Positions 8,563-57,056 are shown, counted from the first letter of the stretch. The stretch: 64,000 nucleotides of DNA from Actinomycetes bacterium (GCA_035275125.1 DATENJ010000477.1:106-64105); one strand, 5' to 3'. Made by a program: numbers and translations. Notes: a model not told the origin generated them from the sequence alone.

Positions 8563-10627
<2,065 letters not shown>

Positions 10628-10698
10628 GCAGACCTCCTTGGTGGTGTGTCGTTCAGCGGGTCTCGGTTGGCAGGGCGGTCGTTGATCATCCCGGTTGC

Positions 10699-11511
10699 CT
10701 AGCCCCGAGCCCCGACCCGGGCTGCGGCCCGGATCAGCCTCGCCACCACGTCAGGGTGGGAAGCCGGCGAGGCGTGACTGGAACGGACCTCCACCGTGGT
10801 CGCGCCGATCCGGTCGGCCATGAACCGCTCCAGGTCCGGGTTGATCATCCGGTCCTGGGTGGAGACCAGGAACCACGACGGCAGCGTCCTCCACGCCGGC
10901 GGCCCCGCCAGGTCGGTGAAGCTCCTCGCCGCGATCGGCTTCTGCACCGAGGCCAGGACCCGCGCCTCGGCCAGCGGGATGTCCGGGGCGAAGTTGTCTG
11001 GGATCGCCGCCGGATCGAACCACAGGAACCCCAGCGAGTCGGGCTGGGTGTGGGCCAGGCCAGGCGGCGGCGGGAACCTGCTCCCCAGCTCACCGAGGCT
11101 CTCCCCCTCGTCGGGCGCGAACGCCGACGCGAACACCAGGCCGACCACGTTGTCGGCGCCGGTGGCGGCGCCGGAGATCACCGCACCGCCGTAGGAGTGG
11201 CCGGCCAGGACGGTCGGGCCCGCCAGCCGCTCGGCCAGGACGTGGCGGGTCCAGGCGACATCTTCGGCCAGTGAGGTCAGCGGCAACTGCACCGCGACCA
11301 CGTCGTAGCCGCGCTGCTGGAGGATGGTGATGACCCGGCTCCAGCTTGACCCGTCAACCCACGCCCCGTGCACCAACAGCACATTCGCCTTGGGACGCCC
11401 ACCGCTGGTCCTGGCCGCGGCCGCGGGGGCCAGGCCGGCGGCCTGGACCGCGGCCAGGCCGGCGACGGCGGCGGTGCCCTTCAACACGGTCCGTCGGGTC
11501 GGCGTACTCAT
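10699..11511 (-). CDS. Tat-secreted alpha/beta hydrolase
   Basis: Twin-arginine signal [18 protein letters not shown]...AAA, GHSYGG nucleophile elbow; the internal ATG has RBS AAGGAGGG. Confidence 0.75.
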
Positions 11512-11531
11512 GTGTTCCCTCCTTGCGGTGT

Positions 11532-12476
11532 TCATGCGGGAGCTCCGACCCGGTATGGGGCCAGGAACGCGGTCAGCGCGGCCAGCAGCTCCTCGGGAGC
11601 CTGCTCGGCGACCCAGTGGGCGGCGCCGGCGAGGACCACGCCCTGGACGTGGTCGGCGGCGAGCCGCATCGTCGCCGCGACTCCGTCACCAACGCTCTCC
11701 GCGCCACCGATGGCCAGCACGGGCAGGCTCAGCCGCTGGGCCTTGCGCTGCTCGTTCTGTGCCATCGTGGTGCTGAGCGCCCGGTAGAACCCGAAGCTGC
11801 CGCGCAGGGCGTCGGGGTCGGCGGCGAGCAGGTCGATGTAGTAGCTGACGGTGTCCTCGGGCAGCTTGCTGGTCCCGGCCGAGGCGTCGATCTCGGACCC
11901 GAAGAAGATCTCCTCCCGTCCCTTGACCAGCCGTTCGTTCACCTCGGCGGGGAGCTGGTTGAACATCAGGTGCCAGAGCCGGGCGTTGAGCAGCGGGGGC
12001 AGGAACAGCGGCGGCGAGGGCGAGATGCCCGGGAGCGGGGCCTCGGAGACGACCAGGCGCTCCACCCGGTCCCGGTGGTCGGCGGCCAGGGCGTAGGCGA
12101 TCGGCATCCCGGTGTCGGTCCCGTACAGGGCGAAGCGCCGGTGGCCCAGCACCTCCATCAGCGCGACCAGGTCCCCGGCCAGGGTGCCGGTGTCGTAGCC
12201 GTCCGCGGGTTTGTCGGACAGCCCGATGCCGCGCTGGTCGACCGCGACGACCTGGAAGTCCCGGGCCAGGGTGGGCATGAGCATGCGCCAGGCGTACCAG
12301 GTCTGGGGCCAGCCGTGGACCAGCAGCAGCGGCGGGCCGTTGCCGCCGGTGACCGCGTGCAGGCGCAGCTGGCCGGTGTCGACATAGCGGCTGGTGAAGG
12401 TGTCGGTGAACCCTGCCGGGAGGTGCGGCGCCCCGGAGACGGAGCCGGCGCCCTCCGGCGTGGGAGATGAGCTCAT
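11532..12476 (-). CDS. alpha/beta-fold hydrolase (haloalkane dehalogenase/epoxide hydrolase-like)
   Basis: LLLVHGWPQTWYAWR, DQRGIGLSD, GTDTGMPIAY; RBS AAAGGAG; start at MSSSPTPEG. Confidence 0.8.
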   Translation of the reverse strand: MSSSPTPEGAGSVSGAPHLPAGFTDTFTSRYVDTGQLRLHAVTGGNGPPLLLVHGWPQTWYAWRMLMPTLARDFQVVAVDQRGIGLSDKPADGYDTGTLAGDLVALMEVLGHRRFALYGTDTGMPIAYALAADHRDRVERLVVSEAPLPGISPSPPLFLPPLLNARLWHLMFNQLPAEVNERLVKGREEIFFGSEIDASAGTSKLPEDTVSYYIDLLAADPDALRGSFGFYRALSTTMAQNEQRKAQRLSLPVLAIGGAESVGDGVAATMRLAADHVQGVVLAGAAHWVAEQAPEELLAALTAFLAPYRVGAPA

Positions 12477-12617
12477 GAAAGCTCCTTTCGCATGGTCTAC
12501 CGGGTTGGGGTAGACCCGTTCTGCCCAGCTGCGCGGCGCCGGGTCGTACAGGCAGGGCCGGACCGCTGCGCCGTCCGCGCGGTGCACACCGTCCGCCAAG
12601 TCTCGTTCGCGCCGGCT

Positions 12618-12667
12618 GGCGATCGCATCTGCCAGTGGCCAGCGCGACTGGCCAGTCGCGTGCGTGG
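12618..12667 (+). repeat. Copy B of the ~47-bp intergenic repeat (contains the 18-bp perfect palindrome CGCGACTGGCCAGTCGCG)
   Basis: GGCGATCGCATCTGCCAGTGGCCAGCGCGACTGGCCAGTCGCG in the divergent intergenic region between the hydrolase and the PPOX gene. Confidence 0.65.
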
Positions 12668-12706
12668 TGGAATGACCGTGAGCAGGACGGCTAACAGGAG
12701 GACGCC

Positions 12707-13099
12707 GTGAGCGCGTTCAGCGACGCCGAAATCGAGTACCTCGGGAGCCAGCGGCTCGGGCGGCTGGCCACGGTCGGCAACGACGGCATGCCCCACGTCG
12801 TCCCCGTCGCCTTCCGGTACAACCGCGACGCCGACAGCATCGACATCGGCGGGCACGACTTCGCCCAGCGAAAGAAGTTCCGCGACGTCCAGCGGACCGG
12901 CGTCGCGGCGTTGGTGGTCGATGATGTGCTGCCGCCCTGGCAGCCCCGGGCCGTGGAGGTGCGCGGCCCGGCGACCACGGTCGACACCGGCGGCAAGGCC
13001 ATCATGGAGGGGTTCGACGACCCGATCATCAGAATCACGCCTCGCCGGATCGTCTCGTGGGGCCTCGAGGACGGCTTCCAGGCCCGATCAGTGGGCTGA
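12707..13099 (+). CDS. PPOX-class (pyridoxamine 5'-phosphate oxidase family) probable F420-dependent enzyme
   Basis: Split-barrel FMN/F420-binding family signature LGRLATVGNDGMPHVVPV; 130 aa. Confidence 0.7.
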   Translation: MSAFSDAEIEYLGSQRLGRLATVGNDGMPHVVPVAFRYNRDADSIDIGGHDFAQRKKFRDVQRTGVAALVVDDVLPPWQPRAVEVRGPATTVDTGGKAIMEGFDDPIIRITPRRIVSWGLEDGFQARSVG

Positions 13100-13120
13100 A
13101 GGCTGAACGACCCTTCCGGC

Positions 13121-43938: not shown

Positions 43939-44081
43939 CGGTCTTGTCCCCGTTGTGATTTCGTATATGTTCGAACATAACACCGCCCCGCGGTGACGTC
44001 CACAACCTCGGGTCGAGGTCATCAGTCAGGCCAGCGCGAAGCCGGCCAGTCGGCGGGCTCCCTCGAGGGGGTCGGCGGAGC

Positions 44082-45422
44082 CTACCTGGCCAGCTCTTGG
44101 AGCAGGATCACCTGGGCCAGGATCATCGCCTCGATCTCTGCCGGGTCGACGCTCTCGTCGGAGGCGTGGATGCGGGCCTTGGCGGTGTCTTCGGCGCCCC
44201 AGAGGATGAACTCGGCGTTCCGCGCCACCGTCTGCAAGGTGTGCAGCAACGGGATCGATCCACCGGACCCGGCGTCCCCGGCCGGTGAGCCGTAGGCGGC
44301 CGCCAGCGCCTTGCGGGCGGCCGTGTAGCCCGGCCCGTCGCTCGCGGCCCGGAACGGGGCGGCGGCCTTGGTCCGTTCGACGGTGACCTGGGCACCCCAG
44401 GGCGCATGGGTCTCCAGATGCCGGACCAGCGCGTCCAGTTCCGTGTCGGGGTCGGCATCGGGCACGATCCGCATCGACAGCTTCGCCCTGGCCTCGGGGA
44501 TCAGGACGTTGGAAGAACGATCGACCGGGATCATGTCGAGGCCGATCGCGTTGATGGACGGCTTGGGCCACAGTCGCGAGCCGATCGTGCCCGTCCCGAT
44601 CACGCCCACGCCCTCGGCGAGGTCGGCCCCGGCCCGCAGGTCCTCCCTCGGAGAAGTCCAGGCCGTCCCAGTCGAAGCTGGACACGCCCTCGACGGCGAC
44701 GTTCCCTTCGGCGTCGTGCAGGGTGGCGAGCAGCCGGGCCAGCGCCATCATCGCGTCCGGGGTCGGGCCGCCGAAGATCCCAGAGTGGAGCGGGTGCTGG
44801 AGCGTCCGCACCGTGACGATGCAGGCCACGTCGCCGCGGAGGGTGGTCGTCAGGGTCGGCTCCCCGACCTTCAGGTTCCCCATGTCGGCGACGATGAACA
44901 CGTCGCACTGGAACAGGTCGGGCTGGGCCTGGACGAAGGCCTCGAGGGTGGAGTTGGTCTCCTCCATCCCCTCCACGATGAGCTTGACGTGGCACGGCGG
45001 CGACCCGTCGAAGACCTTCAGGGTCCCGGCGTGGATCACCAACCCGCTCTTGTCGTCGGAGATCCCCCGCCCGTACAACCGCCCGTCGTCCTTGCGCGTC
45101 GGGGTCCACGGATCGGACGACCAACCCTGTTCGGGAGGGGCTGGCTGGACGTCGTAATGGGCGTACAGCATCACGGTGGATGAGCCCTCGGAGCCCGGGA
45201 CCGTCGCGTAGATCGGAGGGTAGCCGTCGGGAACCGCCTGCAGCTCCGCGTTGTGGAACCCGGCGTCGCGCATGACCTCCACCGTCCTGTCGGCCATCTG
45301 GCGGACCGGTTCAGGGGGTAGCCGGGGAACGCGACCGAAGCCAGCCTGGTGAGGTCCTCGAGGTCCGCGAGCAGCTCCGGCATCATGCCCGCGACCTTCT
45401 CCCGCACGTCGTCCCGGTTCAT
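44082..45422 (-). CDS. M20-family metallopeptidase (dipeptidase / ArgE-DapE-like) with two apparent 1-nt frameshifts (near 45320 and 44650)
   Basis: Three ORF pieces (45171-45536, 44026-45297, 44082-44609) are collinear with the M20 fold (HYDVQP, GRGISDDKSG, EGMEE). A lost C in a C6 run and an extra G in GAGG(G)AGG restore the frame. Confidence 0.65.
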
Positions 45423-46021: not shown

Positions 46022-46062
46022 TGTCCAGGCTCGGTAAGCTGACCCGCAACCTGGGAGGGCTC

Positions 46063-47181
46063 ATGGTGGTGCCGATGATCGGCCGTTGGCTTGCCGCGGT
46101 CGTCGGCGGCCTGCTCGTCCTGGTGGTGTGGGGCAGCGTGATCGGTACGCTGCTCGTGCCCCGCCCGGTGGGCAGCCGGCTGACCCGGTGGGTCGACCGG
46201 CTGGTGAACGGTGGGTTCGCTCTCGTGACCGCCTCCATCTCCGAGTACTGGCGGCGTGACCGGGTGCTGGTCAGGCAGGCGGCGGCCATCCTGCTCATGC
46301 AGCTGGCGGCCTGGCTGGGGGTGGCGTTCCTCGGGTACGGGCTGCTGCTGTGGCCGTTGGTCACCGGCGGCCTGGGGTCGGCGTTCATCGTCGCCGGGTC
46401 CTCCCTGTTCACCCTCGGGTTCAGGGAGCCGGGCGGGGCGCCCTCGGCGGTGGGGTTCGCCGCCGCAGGGACCGGCCTGGCGATCGTGACCCTGCAGATC
46501 GCCTACCTGCCGACGCTCTATGCGGCGTTCAACCGCAGGGAGACCGAGGTGGCGCTGCTGAACGCGCGGGCCGGGGTGCCGTCCTGGGGCCCGGAGCTGC
46601 TGGCACGCACCCACTACGCGCTGGGATCGGGCACGTCCACGCTCGATACGCTGCCCGAGCTGTATGCCCGATGGGAACGCTGGGCTGCCGACGTCGCCGA
46701 GAGCCATACCACCTACCTGCCGCTGGTGCGGTTCCGGTCACCGCGGCCGCTGTCCTCCTGGGTGACGGGGCTGCTGGCGGTGCTGGACTCCGCCGCCCTG
46801 TTCCTGGCGCTGTCTCCGAAGGCCGCCCCGGTGGTCCCGGCCCGCCTGTGTCTACGGAGCGGATTCACATGCTTCAACCAGATCGCCAGGGCGATGGGCG
46901 TTGCCGTGCCCGAGGAAGCCGACCCCAATGGTCAGATCAGCCTGAGCTACCAGGAGTTCCTCGACGCGGTCGCCCGGATGCGCGAGGTCGACTTCCCGAT
47001 CGAGCGTGCCCCCACCGAAGCATGGGCGGACTTCGTCGGCTGGCGGATCAACTACGAGCAGGCCGCCTACGCCGTTGCCGCCGCTGTCGACGCGGTCCCG
47101 GCGCTGTGGTCGGGTCCACGCCCCCACGAGGGTCCCGCCATCGCACCCATCCGCCCACCACTCGGCCGACCGCCCAAGTGA
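46063..47181 (+). CDS. hypothetical polytopic membrane protein
   Basis: 372-aa ORF with RBS GGGAGGG and several predicted TM helices; no recognised family. Confidence 0.55.
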   Translation: MVVPMIGRWLAAVVGGLLVLVVWGSVIGTLLVPRPVGSRLTRWVDRLVNGGFALVTASISEYWRRDRVLVRQAAAILLMQLAAWLGVAFLGYGLLLWPLVTGGLGSAFIVAGSSLFTLGFREPGGAPSAVGFAAAGTGLAIVTLQIAYLPTLYAAFNRRETEVALLNARAGVPSWGPELLARTHYALGSGTSTLDTLPELYARWERWAADVAESHTTYLPLVRFRSPRPLSSWVTGLLAVLDSAALFLALSPKAAPVVPARLCLRSGFTCFNQIARAMGVAVPEEADPNGQISLSYQEFLDAVARMREVDFPIERAPTEAWADFVGWRINYEQAAYAVAAAVDAVPALWSGPRPHEGPAIAPIRPPLGRPPK

Positions 47182-47203
47182 GCCGCACCGACCGCCGGCC
47201 GCC

Positions 47204-48013
47204 TCAGGCCTCGGGCCGCTCGTCTGGCGTTAAGGGAACGCGCCCTCGGTGCTGGCGCCCGGCCCAGGCGCCCAAGACCGGCCAGGGCGACCAGAACACG
47301 AGGTGGACGAGAAGGATGATCGGGTGCACCGCGTCCAGGACCGCTGCCCGGGTCGAGTCGAAGTCGACGTGGTCGCCGTCCAGGACGCTGACATCAGGGG
47401 CGAGGTGGTACCAGTGCGCCGCCTCGACACCGTAGACCACGGCCACCGCAACCAGGATCGTGAGTGCGGCCAGGATGCCTGTCTCGAGCCCGAAACGCAG
47501 CGACCGCGTGGCGCGGGCGCACACATAGGCGATCGCGAACAGCATCACCGGGGGAAGCAGCATGGTCACCGACCCGAGTCCGTCATCGCCCAGCCCGGCG
47601 CGCGAAACGCCCAGCAGGCCCGCACCGAACGCGACCGCCACAGCGGCCGCGACAGCGAACGACCTGCCCGAATGTGGCCTGCCGAGCAGCGCGACGGCGG
47701 CCCCGACGGCGAACCGTCGCCGCTCCCGCGGGACCGTGATGGTGGCGAGTTCGGCGCGCAAGGCCGTACCCCAGTCCACCTGGTCGCCGTCCGACAACGT
47801 GCGCTCGCCGGTGAGAGTCGCCGCGGCCGCTAGGAGCCGGTCGGCAATATCCCGTTCCTCCTGCCCTGTCGCACGCCGCCGGGTCCGGGTCAGGATCGAC
47901 CCCACGACGGCGACGGGCACAGCAAGCACCAGGACGGCCCCGGGCACAATCATCGACAGCGCCAGGGCGACAGCCACCGCCCCGACGATCCAGCGGGTGC
48001 GTCGCGTGGTCAT
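47204..48013 (-). CDS. hypothetical membrane protein
   Basis: 269-aa hydrophobic ORF convergent with the previous gene. Confidence 0.5.
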   Translation of the reverse strand: MTTRRTRWIVGAVAVALALSMIVPGAVLVLAVPVAVVGSILTRTRRRATGQEERDIADRLLAAAATLTGERTLSDGDQVDWGTALRAELATITVPRERRRFAVGAAVALLGRPHSGRSFAVAAAVAVAFGAGLLGVSRAGLGDDGLGSVTMLLPPVMLFAIAYVCARATRSLRFGLETGILAALTILVAVAVVYGVEAAHWYHLAPDVSVLDGDHVDFDSTRAAVLDAVHPIILLVHLVFWSPWPVLGAWAGRQHRGRVPLTPDERPEA

Positions 48014-48104
48014 CAGAACGCCTCACCGGGAGCGGGCCGGATCACGCCGCCCGACGGACGGGAACGTCTCAGATCCCATGTGACGGTTCGATGGGAGGGA
48101 GAGG

Positions 48105-49700
48105 TCATCGCTGGGCCGGGATCTCGACGCGGAGGACGGTGCCGCGACCGAGCTTGCTCGTGACCTCGAGCCGGCCCTCGAGGTCGGCGACTCGGCCTCG
48201 CATCGATCGCAGGCCGAAGTGTTCGCGCCCCACGGCGGCCGGATCGAAGCCACGGCCGTCGTCGGACACCTCGACCAGAACGGTGTCGTCGACTACTGCG
48301 ATGCGGACCGTGGCGTTGCTCGCCCGAGCATGCTTGACCACGTTGGCCAGGGCCTCCTGGCCGAGGCGGTACAGCTGCTCTTCGACCTCCGGTTCCAGTG
48401 GCAGGCGCTCACCGGGCCCGTCGACCTCGATCGCCAACCCTTCCCGGGCGCTGAGCGCCGCCGCCTGCTTGGTGAGCGCGGCGACCAGCCCCTCATCGGC
48501 GAGCGCGCCCGGCTGGAGCTCGAAGATCAGGGCGCGCATCTCGGCCAACGCGCCCCGGGTCAGCTGACCGATCTCGCTCAGCTCCTCCCCCACCGGCCCG
48601 GTGGAATCGAGCCCCTCCCGCGCGAGCGTGTGCTGCGCGGTTCGCACGTGCAGGGTCGTGGAGAACAGCGACTGCGAGACCGAGTCGTGCAGGTCGCGGG
48701 CGATACGCTGTCGTTCAAGGGCGGCGCGCTCGCCCTCGCGGCGCTGCGACTCGGCCAGCTCCAGCCCGGCGCGCCGGCGCTCGCTGACGATCGCCGCCAG
48801 GCAGCAGGTCGTGAGCGCGGCAAAGGTGATGTAGAGCTGGAGATTCAGGGCGCTGTCGGTTGGCGAGAGCTCGACGAAGAATCCCTGCTGGTGGGAGGTG
48901 GTCACCACCGCGATGACCGCCGCGATCGCGACCGCCAGCGTCGCTCCCTCCGGGCCGAGTCGCAGCGCGGCCCAGATGAACGCCGGGAACACCATGTAGG
49001 TGAGCGGCTGCTCGGCGGACAGGGCGATCACGCTCAATCCGGCCACGGCGGCCAGCATCAGGACGCCCTCAACCACCCGTCGGTCTCGCCCCACCAGCGC
49101 CCGCGGGTGCGCCCACGCCAGGGCGAGCGGGACAACCACCAACCCGCCCGCGACCCCACCCAGCCACCAGCTCCGCCAGAACACGGCCATCTCGGGCACC
49201 TCGATGACCTGGCCTGCCCACCGGACCAGGATCGCGACGGTCGCGGCGAGCGCCTCACCGACCGCGACGGCGACGAACACGGCGCCAACCTGCTCTAGCC
49301 GGTCAATCGCCGCCCGCCGGCCGACCAGCCGCTGGAGGATGACCACCGCGACAACAGCCCTGGCCACATGGCCCGCCGTGTCGGCAAGGGCGATCCCCAG
49401 CGGCTGCGAAGCGCCTGGAAGGTCCACAAGCGTGCCGAACAGGTCCCCTAGCAGGAGCGCGGGCCACCAGCGCAATCCACCCAGGTACAGCACCGCAATT
49501 CCCACGCCGGTGGCCGGCCAGAAGGCGCCTACCCCGCCCGTCAGCAGGAACGCCTCGCCACTCTGGGCAGCGACGTAGTAGCCGCCGGCGATCAGGAGCA
49601 CCCCGGCCACATACGGCACCGACCACCTGGAAACCGGGACGCCCCGCCAGGTCGGCTGCGCCGCAGGAAGCGATGCGTCGGTGTTCGTCAGGCCTCCCAT
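48105..49700 (-). CDS. sensor histidine kinase, MASE1-type membrane sensor + HisKA_3 + HATPase_c (NarX/LiaS class)
   Basis: N-terminal multi-TM MASE1-like region, then the H-box RIARDLHDSVSQSLF and the ATPase domain (LVEVSDDGRGF). Confidence 0.85.
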   Translation of the reverse strand: MGGLTNTDASLPAAQPTWRGVPVSRWSVPYVAGVLLIAGGYYVAAQSGEAFLLTGGVGAFWPATGVGIAVLYLGGLRWWPALLLGDLFGTLVDLPGASQPLGIALADTAGHVARAVVAVVILQRLVGRRAAIDRLEQVGAVFVAVAVGEALAATVAILVRWAGQVIEVPEMAVFWRSWWLGGVAGGLVVVPLALAWAHPRALVGRDRRVVEGVLMLAAVAGLSVIALSAEQPLTYMVFPAFIWAALRLGPEGATLAVAIAAVIAVVTTSHQQGFFVELSPTDSALNLQLYITFAALTTCCLAAIVSERRRAGLELAESQRREGERAALERQRIARDLHDSVSQSLFSTTLHVRTAQHTLAREGLDSTGPVGEELSEIGQLTRGALAEMRALIFELQPGALADEGLVAALTKQAAALSAREGLAIEVDGPGERLPLEPEVEEQLYRLGQEALANVVKHARASNATVRIAVVDDTVLVEVSDDGRGFDPAAVGREHFGLRSMRGRVADLEGRLEVTSKLGRGTVLRVEIPAQR

Positions 49701-49778
49701 GTCGACGCCGGACCGTTGAGGAACGGTACCGCCCTGTGCCATCCCAGTCGAACGAGGCGGCCGCGCGGAGGCGCCGGC

Positions 49779-50198
49779 TCACTCGCCTCGTGGCCAGGGA
49801 TCGAGGCGGGAGGCCGCGCGGATCATGTCGAAGAGGTCGTCCAGGTCCCGACCGTGCTTCTCCAGGAACGCGTGCGCGCCTGCCACCATCGCCTGGGGCC
49901 TCAGCTCGCCCATGCAGCTGATGGCGACCACCGGACGGTCCCGGCCTCGGAGCTCCCGGAGGACTCCCATGCCCTCCGGCAGCCGCGGCAGCAGCAGGTC
50001 CAGGACGACCACGTCAGGAAGGAGCTCCAGGTCGAGCCGCTTGGCACTCCGGGTGGACCCGGCCTCCCCGACCACGGTGAGGTCCGGTGCACACTGGATC
50101 AGGCTGCGAAGCGCCCGCCGGACCCGGGCATCGCCCTCGACGATCAAGACCCTCAGCTTGGGTGGCTTCCTCGGGTCGTCGGGCACGGTCTGCTGCAC
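49779..50198 (-). CDS. stand-alone response-regulator receiver (CheY-like) domain protein
   Basis: LRVLIVEG...VVVLDLLLP phospho-acceptor region; GTG start with GAAGGAA. Confidence 0.65.
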   Translation of the reverse strand: MQQTVPDDPRKPPKLRVLIVEGDARVRRALRSLIQCAPDLTVVGEAGSTRSAKRLDLELLPDVVVLDLLLPRLPEGMGVLRELRGRDRPVVAISCMGELRPQAMVAGAHAFLEKHGRDLDDLFDMIRAASRLDPWPRGE

Positions 50199-50326
50199 AT
50201 CGGTTCCTTCGTCACCGGCTGGCCGAGGTGCCTCCGACGGTACGGCAGTGAGCTCGCGGGAGCCTCGGACAAACGACCCACCTCCAGGGTGACGAATGTC
50301 CTCATCGGGCCGGCACTGCCAGGTGG

Positions 50327-51022
50327 CTAGGACGCCGGGGGCGCTGGCGCGATGCCCTCCCGGATCGCCAGCAAGGCGGCCTGGGTTCTGGACGCCACCC
50401 CGAGCTTGCCGAGGATGTTGCTCACATGCGTCCGGGCGGTGCGCTCGCTGATCACCAGCGAATCCGCGATCTCCTGGTTGGACAGCCCCTGGGCCACCAG
50501 GACCAGGACCTCACGCTCCCGCTCGGTCAGAGAGTCCACCGCCCGCGGCTTGGGCGCGACGAGCGACCGCGTCAGTTGCTTCGCGATCGCCGAGTTCAGA
50601 TGCACCTCGCCACGGCACGCCGCCCGGATGGCCGCGGCGACCTCGTCGGCCTCGGCGTCCTTGAGCAGGTAGCCGGCTGCACCGGCCTGGAGAGCGCCAT
50701 GGACCAGGTCGGCCTGGGTGAAGCTGGTCATCGCCACCACTTCGATCTCGGGATGGCGTTGGGTGATGGCCGCGATGGCGGTCACCCCGTCCATTCCGGG
50801 CATCAGCAGGTCCATCAGCGCCACATTCGGGGGCCGACCGGCCGCGACGAGCGCCTCGATCCCGTCCAGGGCCTGCTGCCCGTCGGCGGCCTCGCCGACC
50901 ACCTCGATGTCGTCCACCGTCTCCAGATAGGCCTGCAGGCCGCGACGGACTACGGCGTGGTCGTCAACGACGAACACCCTCACCAGTTGCTGGCCCGGGT
51001 CGTCGGCATCGGGCCGGCTCAC
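50327..51022 (-). CDS. two-component response regulator, NarL/FixJ family (REC + LuxR HTH)
   Basis: VFVVDDHAVVRRGL, MDLLMPGMDG, and the LuxR HTH LTEREREVLVLVAQGLSNQEIADSLVISERTARTHVSNILGKLG. Confidence 0.9.
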   Translation of the reverse strand: MSRPDADDPGQQLVRVFVVDDHAVVRRGLQAYLETVDDIEVVGEAADGQQALDGIEALVAAGRPPNVALMDLLMPGMDGVTAIAAITQRHPEIEVVAMTSFTQADLVHGALQAGAAGYLLKDAEADEVAAAIRAACRGEVHLNSAIAKQLTRSLVAPKPRAVDSLTEREREVLVLVAQGLSNQEIADSLVISERTARTHVSNILGKLGVASRTQAALLAIREGIAPAPPAS

Positions 51023-51207
51023 CTATCGCCTACTCCCCGAATCACGGATCGGTCCAGGTCAACTGTAGAGGGACCTAGGTCATCTGTCGCGTCGAGCTTG
51101 CGTCGCCCGACCGATGAACCCCCACCTCCCAGCTGGGATCATGCGGTTCGGCCGAAGGCGACCTTCAGCGTGGAATGCCTGTCTTGGGACTTCGGGAAGA
51201 GGCTCAG

Positions 51208-52191
51208 ATGCGCATTCAGCAGTCCAGCCACCAGGGATCTGTGGTGCTGACCCTGGCCGGCCGGCTCGACCTGGCGGCCGCTCCCCAGGTCCAGCGGGAC
51301 ATCCTCAAGCAGCTGGCCCAGCAGCCACCGGCGATCATCTGCGACCTGGCCCAGGTGGAGGCGATCGACTCGCTGTGTGCCGGGGTGTTCGCCTCGATCC
51401 GGCATCCTGCCCTGGGTTGGCCTGGCACGGCCCTGGTGCTGTGCGGCGCCCGGCCGGCGGTGGCCGACACCCTCGTCCAGCACGGGGTGATGCATCACCT
51501 GGCGATGTACCCCAGCCTGGATCAGGCGCTGGCCAATGCCCGCGCCCGACCACCACGGCTGGGGGCGCGACTGACCATGGGGCCGGTGCCGACCGCGGCC
51601 GCCGCTGGCCGGCAGTTCGTCGCGGAGGTATGCGGCCGCTGGGGGCTTCAGGTGCTGGCCGAGCCGGCGGCGCTGCTGGCCAGCGAGCTGGTCACCAACG
51701 CCGTGGTCCACGCCCACACGGCGCTGGAGCTACAGGTCGAGCTGCGCGGCTCCCGGCTGGAGGTGGCGGTGCACGACCAGGACCCGGACCTGCCGGGGTT
51801 GCTGGCCGCCAAGGACGGGACCGACCGAGGGCTGGGCCTGCAGATCGTGGACCAGGTGGCCACGACCTGGGGAGTGCGCCAGGACGAGGCTGGCGGCAAG
51901 ACCGTCTGGTGCACCCTGGACCTGCCACCGCCGCAAGCTGGCAGGGTCGGCGGCAGCCGGCAGGCCGGGATCGCCGCGCCGCTCACCGAGCGGGAGCGTG
52001 CCGTCCTGCGGCCGCTACCCACCCGGCTGTCGCACGGGGAGATCGGCCGTGAGCTGGATGTGTCGGTCAACACCGTCAGGAGCCAGGTCCAGGCCATCTA
52101 CCGCAAGTTCGAGGTCACGAGGCGAGCCGAGGCGGTCGCCCACGCACGCCATCTCCGCCTGCTCCCCGGGTCCAGACCCACCGACCCCTAG
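51208..52191 (+). CDS. fusion regulator: STAS (anti-sigma antagonist) + anti-sigma regulatory kinase (HATPase_c, RsbW-like) + LuxR-type HTH
   Basis: N-terminal STAS pattern (VVLTLAGRLDLAAAPQVQRDI...), a central RsbW-like ATPase (LVTNAVVHA, DQDPDLPG), and a C-terminal LuxR HTH (LTERERAVLRPLPTRLSHGEIGRELDVSVNTVRSQVQAIYRKF). Confidence 0.7.
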   Translation: MRIQQSSHQGSVVLTLAGRLDLAAAPQVQRDILKQLAQQPPAIICDLAQVEAIDSLCAGVFASIRHPALGWPGTALVLCGARPAVADTLVQHGVMHHLAMYPSLDQALANARARPPRLGARLTMGPVPTAAAAGRQFVAEVCGRWGLQVLAEPAALLASELVTNAVVHAHTALELQVELRGSRLEVAVHDQDPDLPGLLAAKDGTDRGLGLQIVDQVATTWGVRQDEAGGKTVWCTLDLPPPQAGRVGGSRQAGIAAPLTERERAVLRPLPTRLSHGEIGRELDVSVNTVRSQVQAIYRKFEVTRRAEAVAHARHLRLLPGSRPTDP

Positions 52192-52467
52192 GCGTCAGGG
52201 AGCGTCGGCCGCTCCAAGGCGGCAGCGTAGATTCGCAGCACTCCGGTGACCACGGCGAAGATGGGCGTCGGGTCAACGCCGAGCTCGGCTGCTCGCATCG
52301 CCTGGGGCAGGATGTCGGCCTCCAGGAAGCCGAGGAGCAGGCGAATGAGCTTCACGCCGACCTCCGCCACCTGCATCTGGTCGTGGGTGACCTGGCCCAG
52401 GGACTCGCTGATCGCGGCGGCCAAGGCTTCCGAGTCCAGCTCAGGGGCTGGATCGCCAGTTGGCATG
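52188..52467 (-). CDS. small hypothetical helical protein
   Basis: 93-aa ORF with RBS AAGGCGGA; no known family. Confidence 0.35.
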
Positions 52468-52605
52468 GGGTCCGCCTTGTGTGTGGTCGGTGAGAATAGC
52501 CCGACTTCGCCCAGGGTGGCAACCAGACTACCCACAGCGGCCGCGACGGACCCAGGCGTCGCCGCTACAGGCGCGGACAGACCTACCGACTGATGCGGTG
52601 AGCGA

Positions 52606-54003
52606 TCACTGCGCCGGCGTGCTGGGCTGGATGTTCTTGTTGTTGTGGAACACGTTTGCGGGGTCGTACCTGGCTTTCACCTCGGCGAGCCGCCGGTACG
52701 TGTTGTCGCCGTAGGCCTCGCGGACGCGGCTCGTGTCGTCGTCGGAGTCGAGGAAGTTCACGTAGACGCCGGCGCGGTGGGGCTGCAGGGCGTCGAGGAA
52801 TGCTCGGGCCCACGCGGTCTCCGATGCCCTGATGGTGTCGTCCTGCTCGGGGAGCCAGGCTGCGTCGATGACGATGTTGTGCTCCACATCACGCCCGGGG
52901 TAGGCCGTGGCGTCCCGAGGGGCTCGGGCGACCGCGCCACCCATGTGGAACACCGCCGCGTACGACATCGGGGAGGTGGCCCCGTAGGCGTGCGCGGCGA
53001 CGATGTCGATGACCTCGTCGGACAGGCGGGTGAGGCTGGTGGCCTTCCAGTAGTAGTGCCAGCCATGGGGGACGGTGTCGTCGAGGCCGCGCTGATGGTC
53101 GACGTACAGGGTGGGTCCGACCAGATCCACGAGCGGGGTCCCGAACTGGCGGAGCCCACGGACGGCAAGCTCACCTGCCTCCACGGGTCCGGCGTAGCAG
53201 CTGGCCACGGCGATTGCCGGCCGGAAGCGGAGGTCCTCGTCGACACCCGGCAGCGGCGGGATCGTGCCGAGCCGGATGACGGTCCCGAGCTCGTCGGGCG
53301 CGTCGGCGACGAAGTCCCGGTAGAAGCGCAGGACCTCGGTGGTGTCCTCGGCCGCCCAGAACACCGGTCCGGCCATGACGGTGGGGCCGACCGGGTGCAG
53401 CGCGAACCGGAACGAGCTGACGACGCCGAAGTTCCCGCCGCCGCCTCGCAGGGCCCAGAACAGGTCGGGGTGCTCGCTGGCCGACGCCCGCACGATCTCG
53501 CCCTCGGCGGTGACCACCTCGGCCTGGACGAGATTGTCGACGGTGAGCCCGTACTTGCGCATGAGCCAGCCGATGCCGCCGCCCAGGGTGAGGCCGCCGA
53601 CGCCGGTGTGACCCACGATGCCGCCCGTGGTCGCCAGACCGTACGCCTGTGTCTCGTGGTCGACATCCGCCCACAGGGCACCGCCCTGGACGAGGGCCGT
53701 GCGTTCCACAGGGTTGACCGACACGGCACGCATCGCCGACAGGTCGATCAGGATCCCGCCGTCGCACACCGCGGTGCCGGCGACGTTGTGACCCCCGCCG
53801 CGAACGGCGATCTCGAGATCGCGGTCGCGGGCGAAGCGGACCGCTGCGGCCACGTCGGCGGTGCCGCCGCAGCGGGCAATCAGCCGAGGTCGCCGGTCGA
53901 CGATGCCGTTCCATACGGCCCGGGCGTCGTCGTAGTCATGGCGGTCGGGGACGATCACATCGCCCCGGAACCCAGGAATCTGCGTCGTGGTTGGTGCTGA
54001 CAT
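52606..54003 (-). CDS. FAD-linked oxidase (FAD_binding_4 / BBE-like oxidoreductase)
   Basis: FAD-binding PCMH domain (RGGGHNVAG, GGGIGWLMRKYG) and C-terminal BBE-like region (AYVNFLD). Confidence 0.85.
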   Translation of the reverse strand: MSAPTTTQIPGFRGDVIVPDRHDYDDARAVWNGIVDRRPRLIARCGGTADVAAAVRFARDRDLEIAVRGGGHNVAGTAVCDGGILIDLSAMRAVSVNPVERTALVQGGALWADVDHETQAYGLATTGGIVGHTGVGGLTLGGGIGWLMRKYGLTVDNLVQAEVVTAEGEIVRASASEHPDLFWALRGGGGNFGVVSSFRFALHPVGPTVMAGPVFWAAEDTTEVLRFYRDFVADAPDELGTVIRLGTIPPLPGVDEDLRFRPAIAVASCYAGPVEAGELAVRGLRQFGTPLVDLVGPTLYVDHQRGLDDTVPHGWHYYWKATSLTRLSDEVIDIVAAHAYGATSPMSYAAVFHMGGAVARAPRDATAYPGRDVEHNIVIDAAWLPEQDDTIRASETAWARAFLDALQPHRAGVYVNFLDSDDDTSRVREAYGDNTYRRLAEVKARYDPANVFHNNKNIQPSTPAQ

Positions 54004-54128
54004 CGTCCCTCCTCTGGTGGATGGACTCATCGCAACATCGGGGGGCACTGAGGAGAAGTCAGCGATCTGGACTTTGAAGTAAGAAATCTGGACTTCACGG
54101 CGGTCGGTTGCCGCGGGACACTGCGGTC

Positions 54129-54821
54129 ATGAGGACCTACGGTCAGTACTGCCCGATCGCCCGTGGCGCGGAGATCTTCGCTGAGCGTTGGACGCCGTTG
54201 ATCGTCCGCAACCTGCATCTGGGCTGTGAGACCTTCGGCGAGATCCTCGAGGGTGCGCCCGGGCTCTCCCACACCCTGCTCGCGCAGCGGCTCAAGCAGC
54301 TCGAACGCCTCGGCATCGTCGAGTCGGCACCGAAGGCGCAGGGGCGCGGTCACCGATACCAGCTCACGAGCTCGGGCCACGATCTGTTCAAGGTCTGCGA
54401 GACCCTCGGCGAGTGGGGCGCTCGTTGGCTCGAGATCGCCCCCGAGAACCTCGATCCCTACGTGGCGCTGTGGTCGATGTGCAACGCGCTCCGCCGGGAC
54501 CGGCTCCCGGACCAGCGCGTGGTCATCCGGTTGGACTTCACCGGCTACCGTCCTCACGAGCGGTACTGGCTGCTGCTCGAGCACCGCGAGGCCGAGATCT
54601 GCAAGACCTATCTCGGCCTGGACGAAGACCTCTACATCACCGCCGACGCCGAAGCGTTCGTGAAGTGGCACGCCGGGCAGCTGTCCTGGGCGGAGGCCAC
54701 CCGCGACTCCCGGATCCAGCTCCACGGCCCGTCATGGCTCGTGCGGGCCTTCCCGAGCTGGAACGGCCGCAGCATGTTCGCCCACATCAGACCCGACGCC
54801 GCCACTGTCACCGCGAACTGA
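54129..54821 (+). CDS. HxlR-family transcriptional regulator (long form with C-terminal domain)
   Basis: HxlR wHTH (YCPIARGAEIFAERWTPLIVRNLHLGCETFGEILEGAPGLSHTLLAQRLKQLERLGIV); divergent from the FAD oxidase. Confidence 0.75.
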   Translation: MRTYGQYCPIARGAEIFAERWTPLIVRNLHLGCETFGEILEGAPGLSHTLLAQRLKQLERLGIVESAPKAQGRGHRYQLTSSGHDLFKVCETLGEWGARWLEIAPENLDPYVALWSMCNALRRDRLPDQRVVIRLDFTGYRPHERYWLLLEHREAEICKTYLGLDEDLYITADAEAFVKWHAGQLSWAEATRDSRIQLHGPSWLVRAFPSWNGRSMFAHIRPDAATVTAN

Positions 54822-55774
54822 CGCTGGCCGGCAGCGCGCTCGTACAGGCCGACAACCTGGCCTCGGTCGTTGAGGTCGTGGGCCTGGCTGTCGGATGAGG
54901 CGAGCGGGTGATCGATCGTCGTGTAGGCGCCGCTCTTGTACCGGAAGCCGTGGCGGACCTGGTTGGCATCCAGGTAGAAGCCCACGACGTGGCCGCGGTT
55001 GTTGATGCCGAAGGGGACGGTCGCCACGGCACCGGGGAAGGCAAGCGTGGTGAGGCCGCCGTTGGCTTCTCGAAGGTACACGCGAGTCGCTCCCGCGGCG
55101 TCGAGGTAGAAGCCGGTGGTCTGCCCGCGAGCGTTGCTGTCGACTGCCGTGGACTGCAGGGCGCCGGGGACGTCGATCGTGGTGTAGATCCCCTTGTCGA
55201 GGAGGAACCCGTGAAACGCTCCTCCGGCATCGACGTAGGTGCCGACGACCTGGCCGCGGTCGTTGAGGCCCAGGGCCTGGGTCGGCGCGCCGGGGACGTC
55301 GATCGTCGTGAAGCGGCCCTTGTCCAGCAGGTAACCGTGGCAGCCGCCGCGCGCGTCCTCGTAGTCGCCCAGGATCTGCCTGCGGGCGTTGATCCTCAGC
55401 GCAATCGTCCGCGCGGCGCCCGGGACGTCGATGGTCGTGTAGCGCCCGCGGTCGAGGACGAACCCGTGGACGGCGAAGCCGGCGGTGTCGTAGCCGCCCA
55501 CGATCTGGCCGCGGTTGTTGATGCCGAAGGGCGCGGTCTCCAGGACGGCGTCCGGGTGGTCGATCGTGGTGAACTCACCCCGGTCAAGGAGAAAACCGGG
55601 GCCGAGCGGATCCACGGGATCGTCCGCGATGCAGCTGACCGGTGGCGGCTCCGCGGCCCCGGCGGGGGCGGGACCGGCCACGACGAGCGTCGCGAGGAGG
55701 AGGGCGGCCGCCAGGATCCTCCAACCACTGGTGGTGCTGTCCGTCGGGATCTCGGTGAGCGAAGGGGACGCCAT
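54632..55774 (-). CDS. secreted tandem-repeat protein with HAF-like ~47-aa repeats (x6), paralogue 1
   Basis: Signal peptide (LAAALLLATLVVAGPAPAGAA), then the repeat unit [YF]TTIDxPGA..T.A.GINNRGQ[IV]VG.Y.DA.G..HGF.LD. Its 3' end overlaps the HxlR gene by ~190 nt, so the true stop is uncertain. Confidence 0.6.
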   Translation of the reverse strand: MASPSLTEIPTDSTTSGWRILAAALLLATLVVAGPAPAGAAEPPPVSCIADDPVDPLGPGFLLDRGEFTTIDHPDAVLETAPFGINNRGQIVGGYDTAGFAVHGFVLDRGRYTTIDVPGAARTIALRINARRQILGDYEDARGGCHGYLLDKGRFTTIDVPGAPTQALGLNDRGQVVGTYVDAGGAFHGFLLDKGIYTTIDVPGALQSTAVDSNARGQTTGFYLDAAGATRVYLREANGGLTTLAFPGAVATVPFGINNRGHVVGFYLDANQVRHGFRYKSGAYTTIDHPLASSDSQAHDLNDRGQVVGLYERAAGQRQFAVTVAASGLMWANMLRPFQLGKARTSHDGPWSWIRESRVASAQDSCPACHFTNASASAVM

Positions 55775-55823
55775 GCTGGTCTCCTCTCCGGTGCGGGTCG
55801 GTTCTCTCGCCCGACCAGCCGGG

Positions 55824-56870
55824 CTACGGGAGCATGGGGTCCATCGTGCCGAGCGGATCCAGGCCCATTGCCCCGCCGGCGGCACCGCCGGCCGCCGGGT
55901 CGGTGTAGTAGCCGACGATGTGGCCACGGTCGTTGATCGCCGTCGCGAACGTCGAAACCGCTCCTGGCACAGCGATCCGTGTGGGCTCTCCGTCGTCATA
56001 CCGGAACGCGCGGAGCGTCACGAAGGTGCCGTCCGCACTGAGAAACGCAGCGGTCGCAGCGGTCTGACCGCGATTGTTGAGCCCGATGTGGATGGTCTGC
56101 ACCGCCCCCGGCACATCCGGCAATCTCGTGAAGGTGCCGTCGCGCTCCCGCAGGAACGTGTAGTGGCTGTTCTTCGGGTCGGCCGGAACAAACGCCTGAC
56201 CGATCGACTGGCCGCGGTCGTTGATGTCGTTGAGGGTGGTGTTGGACACACCGGGAGCGTCGACCCTGATGAACCGCCCGTCCTCGTAGATGTAGCCGCG
56301 GAGGAACCGCAGCGGCACCTGCCGGTCCACGTCGCTGTAGATGCCGACCACCTGGCCGCGGTTGTTGATTCTCCAGGCGAGGGTGGTCAGCGCGCCAGGG
56401 ACGTCGAGCGTGGTGAACTTGCCGCGGGCGCTCCGCAGATACCCGTGGGCCTCCCCCATCGTCGGGTCGTACCTGAGGAGGGAGCCGACGGTCACGCCGC
56501 GGTCGTTGCCGCCGGTGAGGTCGTTCTCCAGGTCCCCAGCTGGGTCGTCGAACTTCGTGTACCTGCCGCGCTTGTCCAGGCGGAAGCCGTGCAGCCGGCC
56601 GTCGGCGTTGGCGTAGTAGCCGATGACATCACCGCTGTTGGTGATGTCCCACGCCTCGGTCCTGGTGGCGCCGGGGAAGTCGATGGTCCGGTAGCGCTCG
56701 CCGTCGAAGACGTAGCCGTGGATCGCACCTCGTGCGGGAGCGGCGTCCTGACCGTCCGAGGTCGCGGCGGCGGCGGGTAGCCCGCTCGCCGCCAGCGTCA
56801 CGGCGGCCAGCACGAGAGCGGAGACGACTGCTGCGCGGATGCGATGTGGGTATCGGGTGATGCGCACCAT
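55824..56870 (-). CDS. secreted tandem-repeat protein with HAF-like repeats, paralogue 2
   Basis: Signal peptide (AAVVSALVLAAVTLAASG) and the same repeat family (HGYVFDGERYRTIDFPGA, TLDVPGALTTLAWRINNRGQVVG). Confidence 0.6.
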   Translation of the reverse strand: MVRITRYPHRIRAAVVSALVLAAVTLAASGLPAAAATSDGQDAAPARGAIHGYVFDGERYRTIDFPGATRTEAWDITNSGDVIGYYANADGRLHGFRLDKRGRYTKFDDPAGDLENDLTGGNDRGVTVGSLLRYDPTMGEAHGYLRSARGKFTTLDVPGALTTLAWRINNRGQVVGIYSDVDRQVPLRFLRGYIYEDGRFIRVDAPGVSNTTLNDINDRGQSIGQAFVPADPKNSHYTFLRERDGTFTRLPDVPGAVQTIHIGLNNRGQTAATAAFLSADGTFVTLRAFRYDDGEPTRIAVPGAVSTFATAINDRGHIVGYYTDPAAGGAAGGAMGLDPLGTMDPMLP

Positions 56871-57056
56871 GCTGGTGCACCCCCTTCCTGTCATGCCGGA
56901 GGTCGTCACCAGATGTTCGCCGCGAACGGCCAGCCGGATCGGCTCAGGCCGGAATCACCCGGGCGGGGTGAGGACGGGTCACCCGGGCCGCCATCGCCGC
57001 GACTAGGGCCAAAGGGCCGCCCATCACGGGGCGGCCCTTGGCATGGCTGGGAGCGG

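Follow-up and report, generated by a model that had tools for sequence, protein, structure and literature searches.

How a single bacterial protein came to carry an anti-sigma-factor-antagonist (STAS) domain, an RsbW-like GHKL domain and a LuxR-type helix-turn-helix (HTH), and what kind of regulator such a protein could be, is the question raised by a gene at 51208-52191 in a stretch of 64,000 nt (64 kb) from an Actinomycetes bacterium (GCA_035275125.1 DATENJ010000477.1:106-64105). We refer to this whole stretch as the window, and all coordinates are counted along it unless another locus is named. A previous sequence-only reading had taken the product, hereafter the fusion protein, for a self-contained partner-switch transcription factor, in which phosphorylation of its own STAS domain could gate DNA binding, possibly with input from an adjacent two-component system. 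Our analysis showed that the fusion protein is a cut-down descendant of a STAND regulator of about 1,000 amino acids (aa), produced by an in-frame internal deletion.

The presence of the three domains in one polypeptide was supported by a hidden Markov model scan, in which all of them exceeded the curated Pfam cut-offs (22.6 bits for STAS, 27.4 for HATPase_c_2, 26.4 for HATPase_c and 23.5 for GerE). The GHKL region scored 30.5 bits with HATPase_c_2 and 31.2 bits with HATPase_c, the Pfam span reaching residue 240 (for the other scores and all features, see Table 1), and NCBIfam models of an anti-sigma antagonist, an RsbA-family anti-sigma protein and a MalT/NarL-type HTH also matched. A sequence resembling a ribosome-binding site (RBS), GGGAAGAGG, precedes the ATG at 51208 with a spacing of 5 nt. 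The GC content at third codon positions (GC3) stays at 0.85-0.95 in a single frame from the start to the end of the gene, indicating that the three domains were not joined by a frameshift, and the open reading frame (ORF) recurs as orthologues of 327-335 aa in independent metagenome assemblies (L014, 95% identity; 11 contigs of P0002, 90% identity), indicating that it is not an assembly artefact. The case that the sequence-only reading had named against itself, an artefactual fusion of separate genes, is thus ruled out.

With phmmer, the STAS domain matched 4qtp and 4hyl in the PDB, and in Foldseek searches with AlphaFold2 models it resembled SpoIIAA, RsbV, RsfB and 4qtp. The models of the GHKL domain resembled SpoIIAB (1til, 1th8, 1l0o) and UsfX, with template-modelling (TM) scores of 0.65-0.77. 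A PDB sequence search with the whole fusion protein as the query gave no GHKL match, and the family profile alone reached SpoIIAB and RsbW. Pfam found no Response_reg match in the fusion protein, that is, no receiver ahead of the GerE HTH. The HTH was 65% identical over 83 aa to that of a frameshifted full-length copy in L002, and only 43% identical over 51 aa to that of the adjacent NarL regulator.

The origin of the protein became clear from homologue searches, which covered 5.8 billion proteins and were followed by an exhaustive HMMER search. In the former search, the first ~245 residues were shared by a large, mostly metagenomic, actinobacterial family; GerE was present only in the nearest three matches (at least 88% identity), and in many matches with 70-82% identity, the GHKL domain was followed by APAGSGKTTLL (Walker A) and MalT-like sequence, up to the point where the contig broke off. 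Two giants emerged intact from the exhaustive search: P0121, with 1019 aa and 71% identity, and P0129, with 992 aa and 44% identity, both with the order STAS, GHKL, AAA_16/STAND, TPR_MalT and GerE. The alignment with P0121, P0003, P0008 and P0012 (A1) showed that the fusion protein follows P0121 collinearly over residues 1-254 and again over the last ~73, the ~690 residues in between being absent; against the relatives of ~1,000 aa, it comprises residues 1-251 and the last ~76. The deletion junction lies in frame between R251 and Q252 (between nt 51960 and 51961), where GGC AGC CGG is followed by CAG GCC, with a CGG microhomology and CGG repeats at both ends. It joins the post-GHKL linker (VGRSR, continued by EPPAK in relatives) to the pre-HTH linker (HQ, followed by RAEIVAPLTERE), and the ~690 missing codons correspond to the STAND NTPase with its P-loop, a winged helix and the TPR sensor. 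No STAND/AAA_16 NTPase with Walker A was found in the fusion protein, as opposed to P0008, P0012, P0121 and P0129, and no MalT-like TPR, as opposed to L002, L012, L013, P0123 and P0129, which have TPR_MalT.

A second allele pointed to the same process. P0003 (496 aa, 88% identity) lies at the same locus as the fusion gene, with 33 identical nucleotides upstream and the same small gene downstream, and carries two different in-frame deletions, the P-loop being lost with one and the winged helix plus TPR with the other. Because the deletions differ, and because the VGRSR segment kept in the fusion protein is missing from P0003, the two alleles derive independently from a full-length ancestor. The HTH stays in frame in each of the three deletions (one in the fusion gene and two in P0003). 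The same size series was found in a second subclade, comprising P0129 with 992 aa, P0123 with 587 aa and no NTPase, and P0133 with 351 aa. The C-terminal HTH of the MalT subtype is common to the fusion protein and the LAL/MalT-family regulators. The homologues P0121 and P0129 have a STAND NTPase with Walker A and B, WHD_MalT and TPR_MalT ahead of this HTH, whereas the fusion protein lost the NTPase and TPR; an N-terminal STAS-GHKL module, which the fusion-protein family carries, was not found described for LAL regulators in the literature.

Several giants are themselves interrupted. In L002, a metagenome-assembled relative, the full-length gene (10001-13102, + strand) is frameshifted between the STAS and GHKL domains, and a lone C-terminal paralogue fragment just upstream (9451-9776, - strand) consists of the pre-HTH linker and an HTH 76% identical to that of the fusion protein. 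The giants in L012 (3265-6345) and L013 (3026-6057) are each predicted as two adjacent or overlapping ORFs, the first for STAS, GHKL and a partial NTPase, and the second for WHD_MalT, TPR and GerE.

The part upstream of the junction corresponds to a characterized protein, SipA of Actinoplanes missouriensis (AMIS_54230; Tezuka et al. 2023), which has 243 aa, with a STAS domain at 6-103 and an RsbW-like domain at 158-239 (PMC10733313). Like the fusion protein, SipA has an N-terminal STAS domain followed by an RsbW-like GHKL domain as one unit of ~245 aa. The SipA sequence was taken from parts of the deposited model, and over the ~50 of 243 residues that this comparison covers, SipA 162-194 (ELVANAIDHAHTMMALRVSLRTRYLSIAVRDGS) is identical to fusion-protein residues 160-192 at 17 of 33 positions, and SipA 49-65 to residues 47-63 at 5 of 17, with Pro57 opposite Ser55. 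The offset of SipA is constant (+2) in all aligned parts, and its residues P57, E162, N166 and D192 are in register with S55, E160, N164 and D190. This in-register match indicates that the N-terminal 245 residues are a SipA-family module; judging from the alignment, the STAS-GHKL half of the fusion protein belongs to the SipA family. A signature shared by SipA and its relatives is Pro, or at least a residue other than Ser, at the canonical phosphosite. The SipA chain ends with the GHKL domain, and its target is the neighbouring sigma-SsdA, a sigma factor that bears a STAS tail, whereas the fusion protein adds a LuxR HTH, has Ser for Pro at the phosphosite and has no sigma-STAS gene nearby.

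Two-domain paralogues of SipA are abundant in Actinoplanes and Paractinoplanes. P0285, P0286 and P0361, the last of which is from A. missouriensis, were rejected as SipA itself since none adjoins a sigma-STAS gene. The gene for P0361 (L019, 2170-4741) is divergent from one for a MASE4 histidine kinase, an echo of the MASE1 arrangement at our locus that may be coincidence.

The authors of the SipA study stated that no similar domain structure had been reported previously, and presented SipA as unique and confined to sporangium-forming actinomycetes (PMC10733313). Our census, in contrast, comprised 333 retrieved proteins with a complete STAS-GHKL core: 254 with the core only, 31 short proteins with core and HTH (the fusion protein included), three intermediates, two intact giants, nine contig-truncated giants with Walker A, and 34 with an unclassified tail of more than 40 aa. 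A profile search found a separate short subfamily of ~25 proteins (323-402 aa; STAS, HATPase_c_2 and GerE) with 33-76% identity to P0148, including one from the cultured Virgisporangium ochraceum; some bear JGI names such as "CsgD family regulator / anti-anti-sigma / anti-sigma kinase". Since this subfamily keeps the short architecture across such divergence, the design is viable. The fusion is thus not the only one of its kind, with ~30 other short three-domain proteins in the census. Connections of the SipA-like module to a LuxR-type output were found in four forms: direct, via a receiver domain, via TPR repeats, and via a full STAND-TPR switch. A single metagenomic protein, P0015 (481 aa; core 74% identical), has STAS, GHKL, receiver and GerE domains, and the acidic pocket of its receiver is AH instead of DD. 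We found no description in the literature of fusions of STAS, HATPase and GerE/LuxR domains, nor of LAL regulators with a STAS-GHKL module.

The conserved residues of the GHKL domain were compared with those of SpoIIAB. The N-box (E160, N164 and H168), the G1 Asp (D190) and the G2 box (RGLGL) are present in the fusion protein, but G1 reads DQDPD against DEGVG in SpoIIAB, both Gly residues being lost, and the ATP lid is ~8 residues shorter in the profile alignment. Among the 333 members, E160 is conserved in 328, N164 in 307, H168 in 316, D190 in 329 and G210 in 313, and because of this strong conservation nucleotide binding by the GHKL domain is probably retained.

We predicted the structure with AlphaFold2 in two runs, one with an alignment of 54 sequences and the other after the addition of 28 HTH-bearing rows. 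Values of pLDDT (predicted local distance difference test), as means of ten-residue blocks, were ~83-98 over residues 1-190, including the 6-residue connector (86-98 with 54 sequences), fell to 54-79 at residues 191-210 between G1 and G2 (68-79) and came back to 81-94 up to residue 240 (89-94). In the deeper run, HTH residues 261-320 reached 82-95. The models suggest that STAS and GHKL form a rigid body to which the HTH is tethered, without confident docking. A fixed docking of the HTH on the GHKL domain was considered and is unsupported, because even in the deeper run, which folded the HTH well, linker residues 249-256 stayed below 50 and the predicted TM-score (pTM) was still 0.63. For SipA, constitutive binding between the STAS and GHKL domains was shown by two-hybrid assays and AlphaFold, and the sigma-SsdA STAS tail is bound by the GHKL face that lies opposite the cis STAS (PMC10733313).

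The explanation that we favour, with modest confidence, is that the fusion protein is a one-component LuxR-type regulator, made of a SipA-like module and a MalT-subtype HTH and derived from an internally deleted STAND regulator. Its STAS domain would be packed against the RsbW-like GHKL domain of the same chain as a permanent structural partner instead of a phospho-switch, and a flexible linker of ~17 residues would lead to the HTH. The HTH would bind DNA as a dimer, with dimerisation possibly supplied by the GHKL domain by analogy with SpoIIAB and RsbW, and nucleotide binding, a trans partner at the free GHKL face, or the two together may tune its activity. Loss of the STAND-TPR switch probably left the regulator simpler or constitutive. 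Of the earlier proposal, a self-contained regulator is plausible, but the phospho-switch is unsupported.

Several points weigh against this explanation. The kinship with SipA was established on a partial sequence, as noted above, and the contact between the STAS and GHKL domains was judged from pLDDT; three-domain proteins of this kind are known here from sequence and predicted structure alone. No trans partner of the fusion protein was identified at the locus, and no sigma factor with a STAS tail was found within ~6 kb, including a Pfam scan of the neighbours in 46066-55999. As Ser55 is present and most of the GHKL motifs are retained, phosphorylation could occur within a dimer. The split or frameshifted state of the giant relatives in L002, L012 and L013 hints at decay in the family, with sequencing error as the alternative. 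In the short-form clade, the ratio of non-synonymous to synonymous substitution rates (dN/dS) was 0.5-0.8 and not significantly below 1, so that relaxed constraint is possible; with synonymous divergence (dS) of only 0.035-0.07, this comparison lacks power. Finally, the lineage of the fusion gene and L014 carries L269P where HTH helix 1 ends, and Y284D is confined to the fusion protein.

The last of these points also belong to the strongest alternative, which we regard as unlikely but worth weighing, namely that the gene is a relic: a decaying remnant of a giant LAL-type regulator that is open by chance in a GC-rich genome and has lost its regulated function. This reading is kept alive by the indel-prone locus, the split giants and the change from Leu to Pro in the HTH, and it would also account for the two independent deletion alleles at one locus, the remnant HTH fragment beside the L002 copy, the non-significant dN/dS of the short clade and the junction linker, which has six non-synonymous changes and no synonymous one. 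However, if the three deletions were neutral, all of them would be in frame by chance in about 1 of 27 cases. An intact ORF occurs in three diverged lineages and in 11 contigs that come from different samples, the RBS and the upstream region are conserved, and GC3 is still gene-like. In deep comparisons, the core showed dN/dS of 0.36-0.55 (p<0.005), indicating purifying selection. The in-frame deletions, the conserved upstream region and the stable, independent short subfamily therefore argue for function.

The phosphorylation proposed by the sequence-only reading, in which Ser55 in the STAS domain is modified by the GHKL domain of the same chain, so that DNA binding by the HTH is gated, possibly with two-component input, seems very unlikely to us. 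Ser55, after Asp54, stands exactly at the position of SpoIIAA Ser58, and the N-box, G1 Asp and G2 box are present. Both folds match those of the SpoIIAA/SpoIIAB, RsbV/RsbW and RsfB/UsfX pairs (Foldseek TM 0.65-0.85). Unlike these pairs, the fusion protein is a single chain with a DNA-binding output, its phospho-serine is unconserved in the family, the G1 glycines are absent, the lid is shorter, and no sigma or PP2C partner was seen near the locus. The conservation of the acceptor, which had been suggested as a check, was found to be poor: over the 333 members, the Ser55 column has Pro in 155, Asp in 39, Ala in 35, Gly in 23 and Ser in 22. All close relatives of ~1,000 aa have Pro at this site, as does SipA, and the TCG codon occurs only in the fusion-protein clade as opposed to CCG in L002, L012 and L013, the result of a single recent C-to-T change. 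In SpoIIAA/SpoIIAB, the phospho-acceptor must reach the gamma-phosphate of ATP. In the published AlphaFold model of SipA, the C-alpha of Pro57 is 40.1 Å from Asn166 of the N-box and 36.1 Å from Asp192 of G1, and our models of the fusion protein have no helix after the STAS phosphosite loop. Because Pro is the commonest residue at the phosphosite and the distance in the SipA model is 36-40 Å, phosphorylation is doubtful, and cis-phosphorylation of the fused STAS domain is unlikely.

A precedent for such a reaction comes from Rv1364c of Mycobacterium tuberculosis, which is reported to autophosphorylate its own fused STAS domain at Ser600 (as cited in PMC10950880). Like the fusion protein, Rv1364c (PAS, PP2C, GHKL, STAS) combines a kinase-like domain and a STAS domain in a single polypeptide; it differs in that GHKL precedes STAS, PAS and PP2C are present, a DNA-binding domain is lacking, and the target is SigF. 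STAS domains and RsbW-type kinases normally occur as separate proteins; fused cases were already known with SipA (PMC10733313) and Rv1364c (PMC10950880).

We consider it highly improbable, too, that the fusion protein is a DNA-tethered form of SipA, whose module captures a STAS-bearing partner in trans (a sigma-SsdA-like protein or a free STAS protein) and whose HTH localises the capture to particular promoters. The second STAS-binding face of the SipA GHKL domain (PMC10733313) would fit this proposal, as would the high conservation of GHKL binding and nucleotide residues in spite of a cis STAS without an acceptor, and free STAS genes occur near a short-form homologue in L015. However, the surroundings of the fusion gene showed no gene for a sigma-STAS or a free STAS protein, tblastn with the fusion protein found no second STAS in the window, and the contexts of family members are heterogeneous. 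The genes scanned around the locus include neither a cognate sigma factor nor a PP2C phosphatase, and the syntenic neighbourhood in L003 has neither, apart from a distant ECF sigma gene ~7 kb away; the lack of a PP2C gene among the neighbours also speaks against the phospho-switch.

The surroundings of the gene bear on the proposed link to the two-component system. The gene order described before, with a NarL regulator, a lone receiver and a MASE1 kinase divergent from the fusion gene across ~185 bp, was confirmed, the spacer having exactly that length. It contains a direct repeat (AGGTCAACTGT at 51056-51066 and AGGTCATCTGT at 51077-51087; 21-nt spacing), which is conserved in L003 and could serve the NarL regulator or the fusion protein as an operator; a promoter scan found no sigma-70 consensus promoter in 51023-51207. 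The locus is collinear with L003 over 46028-54801 at ~94% nucleotide identity, with three indels. A PadR gene is present only in L003 (at ~48062-48071), a 559-bp segment with the lone receiver (49773-50332) is present in the window and L014 and absent from L003, and a 648-bp segment (53748-54396), which spans the starts of a BBE-oxidase gene and an HxlR gene and the spacer, is limited to the window. Between strains, the region is prone to deletion. In L003 and L014 the fusion gene remains syntenic with the two-component system, which would favour a two-component input, but such linkage was found only in relatives that are ~94-98% identical in DNA, and the giants and other family members have unrelated neighbourhoods without this system. 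As the linkage is confined to near-identical strains, and even the lone receiver is missing in L003, the suggested cross-wiring has no comparative support, and functional coupling is unsupported by synteny beyond these strains.

Among the neighbours, only a small ORF of 92 aa, which overlaps the stop codon of the fusion gene, accompanies family members elsewhere, and it does so in varying arrangements. Its homologues are downstream and convergent in L003, L011 and L014, beside the giant in L012 (downstream; 71% identity over 59 aa), and, in L013, upstream of the giant in divergent orientation (47-49% identity). From this recurrence, the ORF may be a conserved partner of the regulator family.

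Elsewhere in the window, an M20-type peptidase gene (44026-45297, - strand) has a frame change near 44640 (~44600-44700), where both the translation and GC3 shift, indicating a pseudogene or an assembly indel error. Two partly overlapping ORFs (54632-55999 and 55824-56909, both - strand) encode paralogues consisting of repeated units of ~45 residues (…HGF…G.(F/Y)TTID.PGA…IN.RGQ.VG.Y…), one of which has a weak DUF3466 match.

Table 1. Features of the fusion gene and its neighbours in the window.
Feature	Coordinates	Strand	Evidence or remark
MASE1 / HisKA_3 / HATPase_c sensor histidine kinase	48105..49742	-	Pfam
Receiver-only protein	49779..50198	-	Pfam Response_reg 3.4e-12; 34% identity to receiver of adjacent regulator
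NarL/FixJ-type response regulator (REC and GerE)	50327..51022	-	Pfam, NCBIfam
Divergent intergenic region, 185 bp	51023..51207		~95% identical to L003 counterpart
STAS / RsbW-like GHKL / LuxR-HTH gene, 327 aa	51208..52191 (stop codon included)	+	ORF, RBS, constant GC3 frame, Pfam, orthologues L003-L010 and L014
STAS domain, residues 7-107, non-canonical	51226..51528	+	Pfam 53.9 bits, 1.7e-14
TCG codon of Ser55, canonical STAS phospho-serine position	51370..51372	+	Alignment to 4qtp; relatives CCG (Pro)
RsbW/SpoIIAB-like GHKL domain, residues 129-235	51592..51912	+	Pfam, Foldseek, profile alignment to SpoIIAB, family census
Linker, residues 241-257, flexible, holds deletion junction	51928..51978	+	Alignment A1 (P0121, P0003, P0008, P0012), junction DNA, pLDDT
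GerE/LuxR HTH, residues 258-313, MalT/LAL subtype	51979..52146	+	Pfam GerE 39.7 bits, 3.7e-10; collinear with P0121 HTH
92-aa ORF, convergent, overlaps stop codon of fusion gene	52188..52466	-	No Pfam match

Beyond the one-component regulator that we favour, a broader proposal may be considered, in which the SipA-like module serves LuxR-type factors generally as an input or adaptor domain that had gone unrecognised, and the mini form is a true partner switch. The GHKL domain would then either reversibly sequester the sigma-region-4-like HTH, with the regained Ser55 or a trans STAS as the toggle, or recruit or sequester a STAS-tagged sigma factor at specific promoters. We regard this proposal as quite unlikely, and on present evidence the fusion protein establishes no new principle of gene regulation. 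The STAS-GHKL module is nevertheless wider than the SipA report indicated: it forms the conserved N-terminal part of several hundred of the proteins retrieved, repeatedly joined to LuxR-type outputs, from minimal forms of ~330 aa to MalT-like STAND regulators of ~1,000 aa. This distribution offers leads on the role of a non-phosphorylatable STAS domain paired with a nucleotide-binding anti-sigma-like domain and on how STAND regulators gain extra input modules. The inferred giant, the 496-aa allele and the 327-aa protein form a natural truncation series at one site, with which the parts that such a regulator needs may be dissected.

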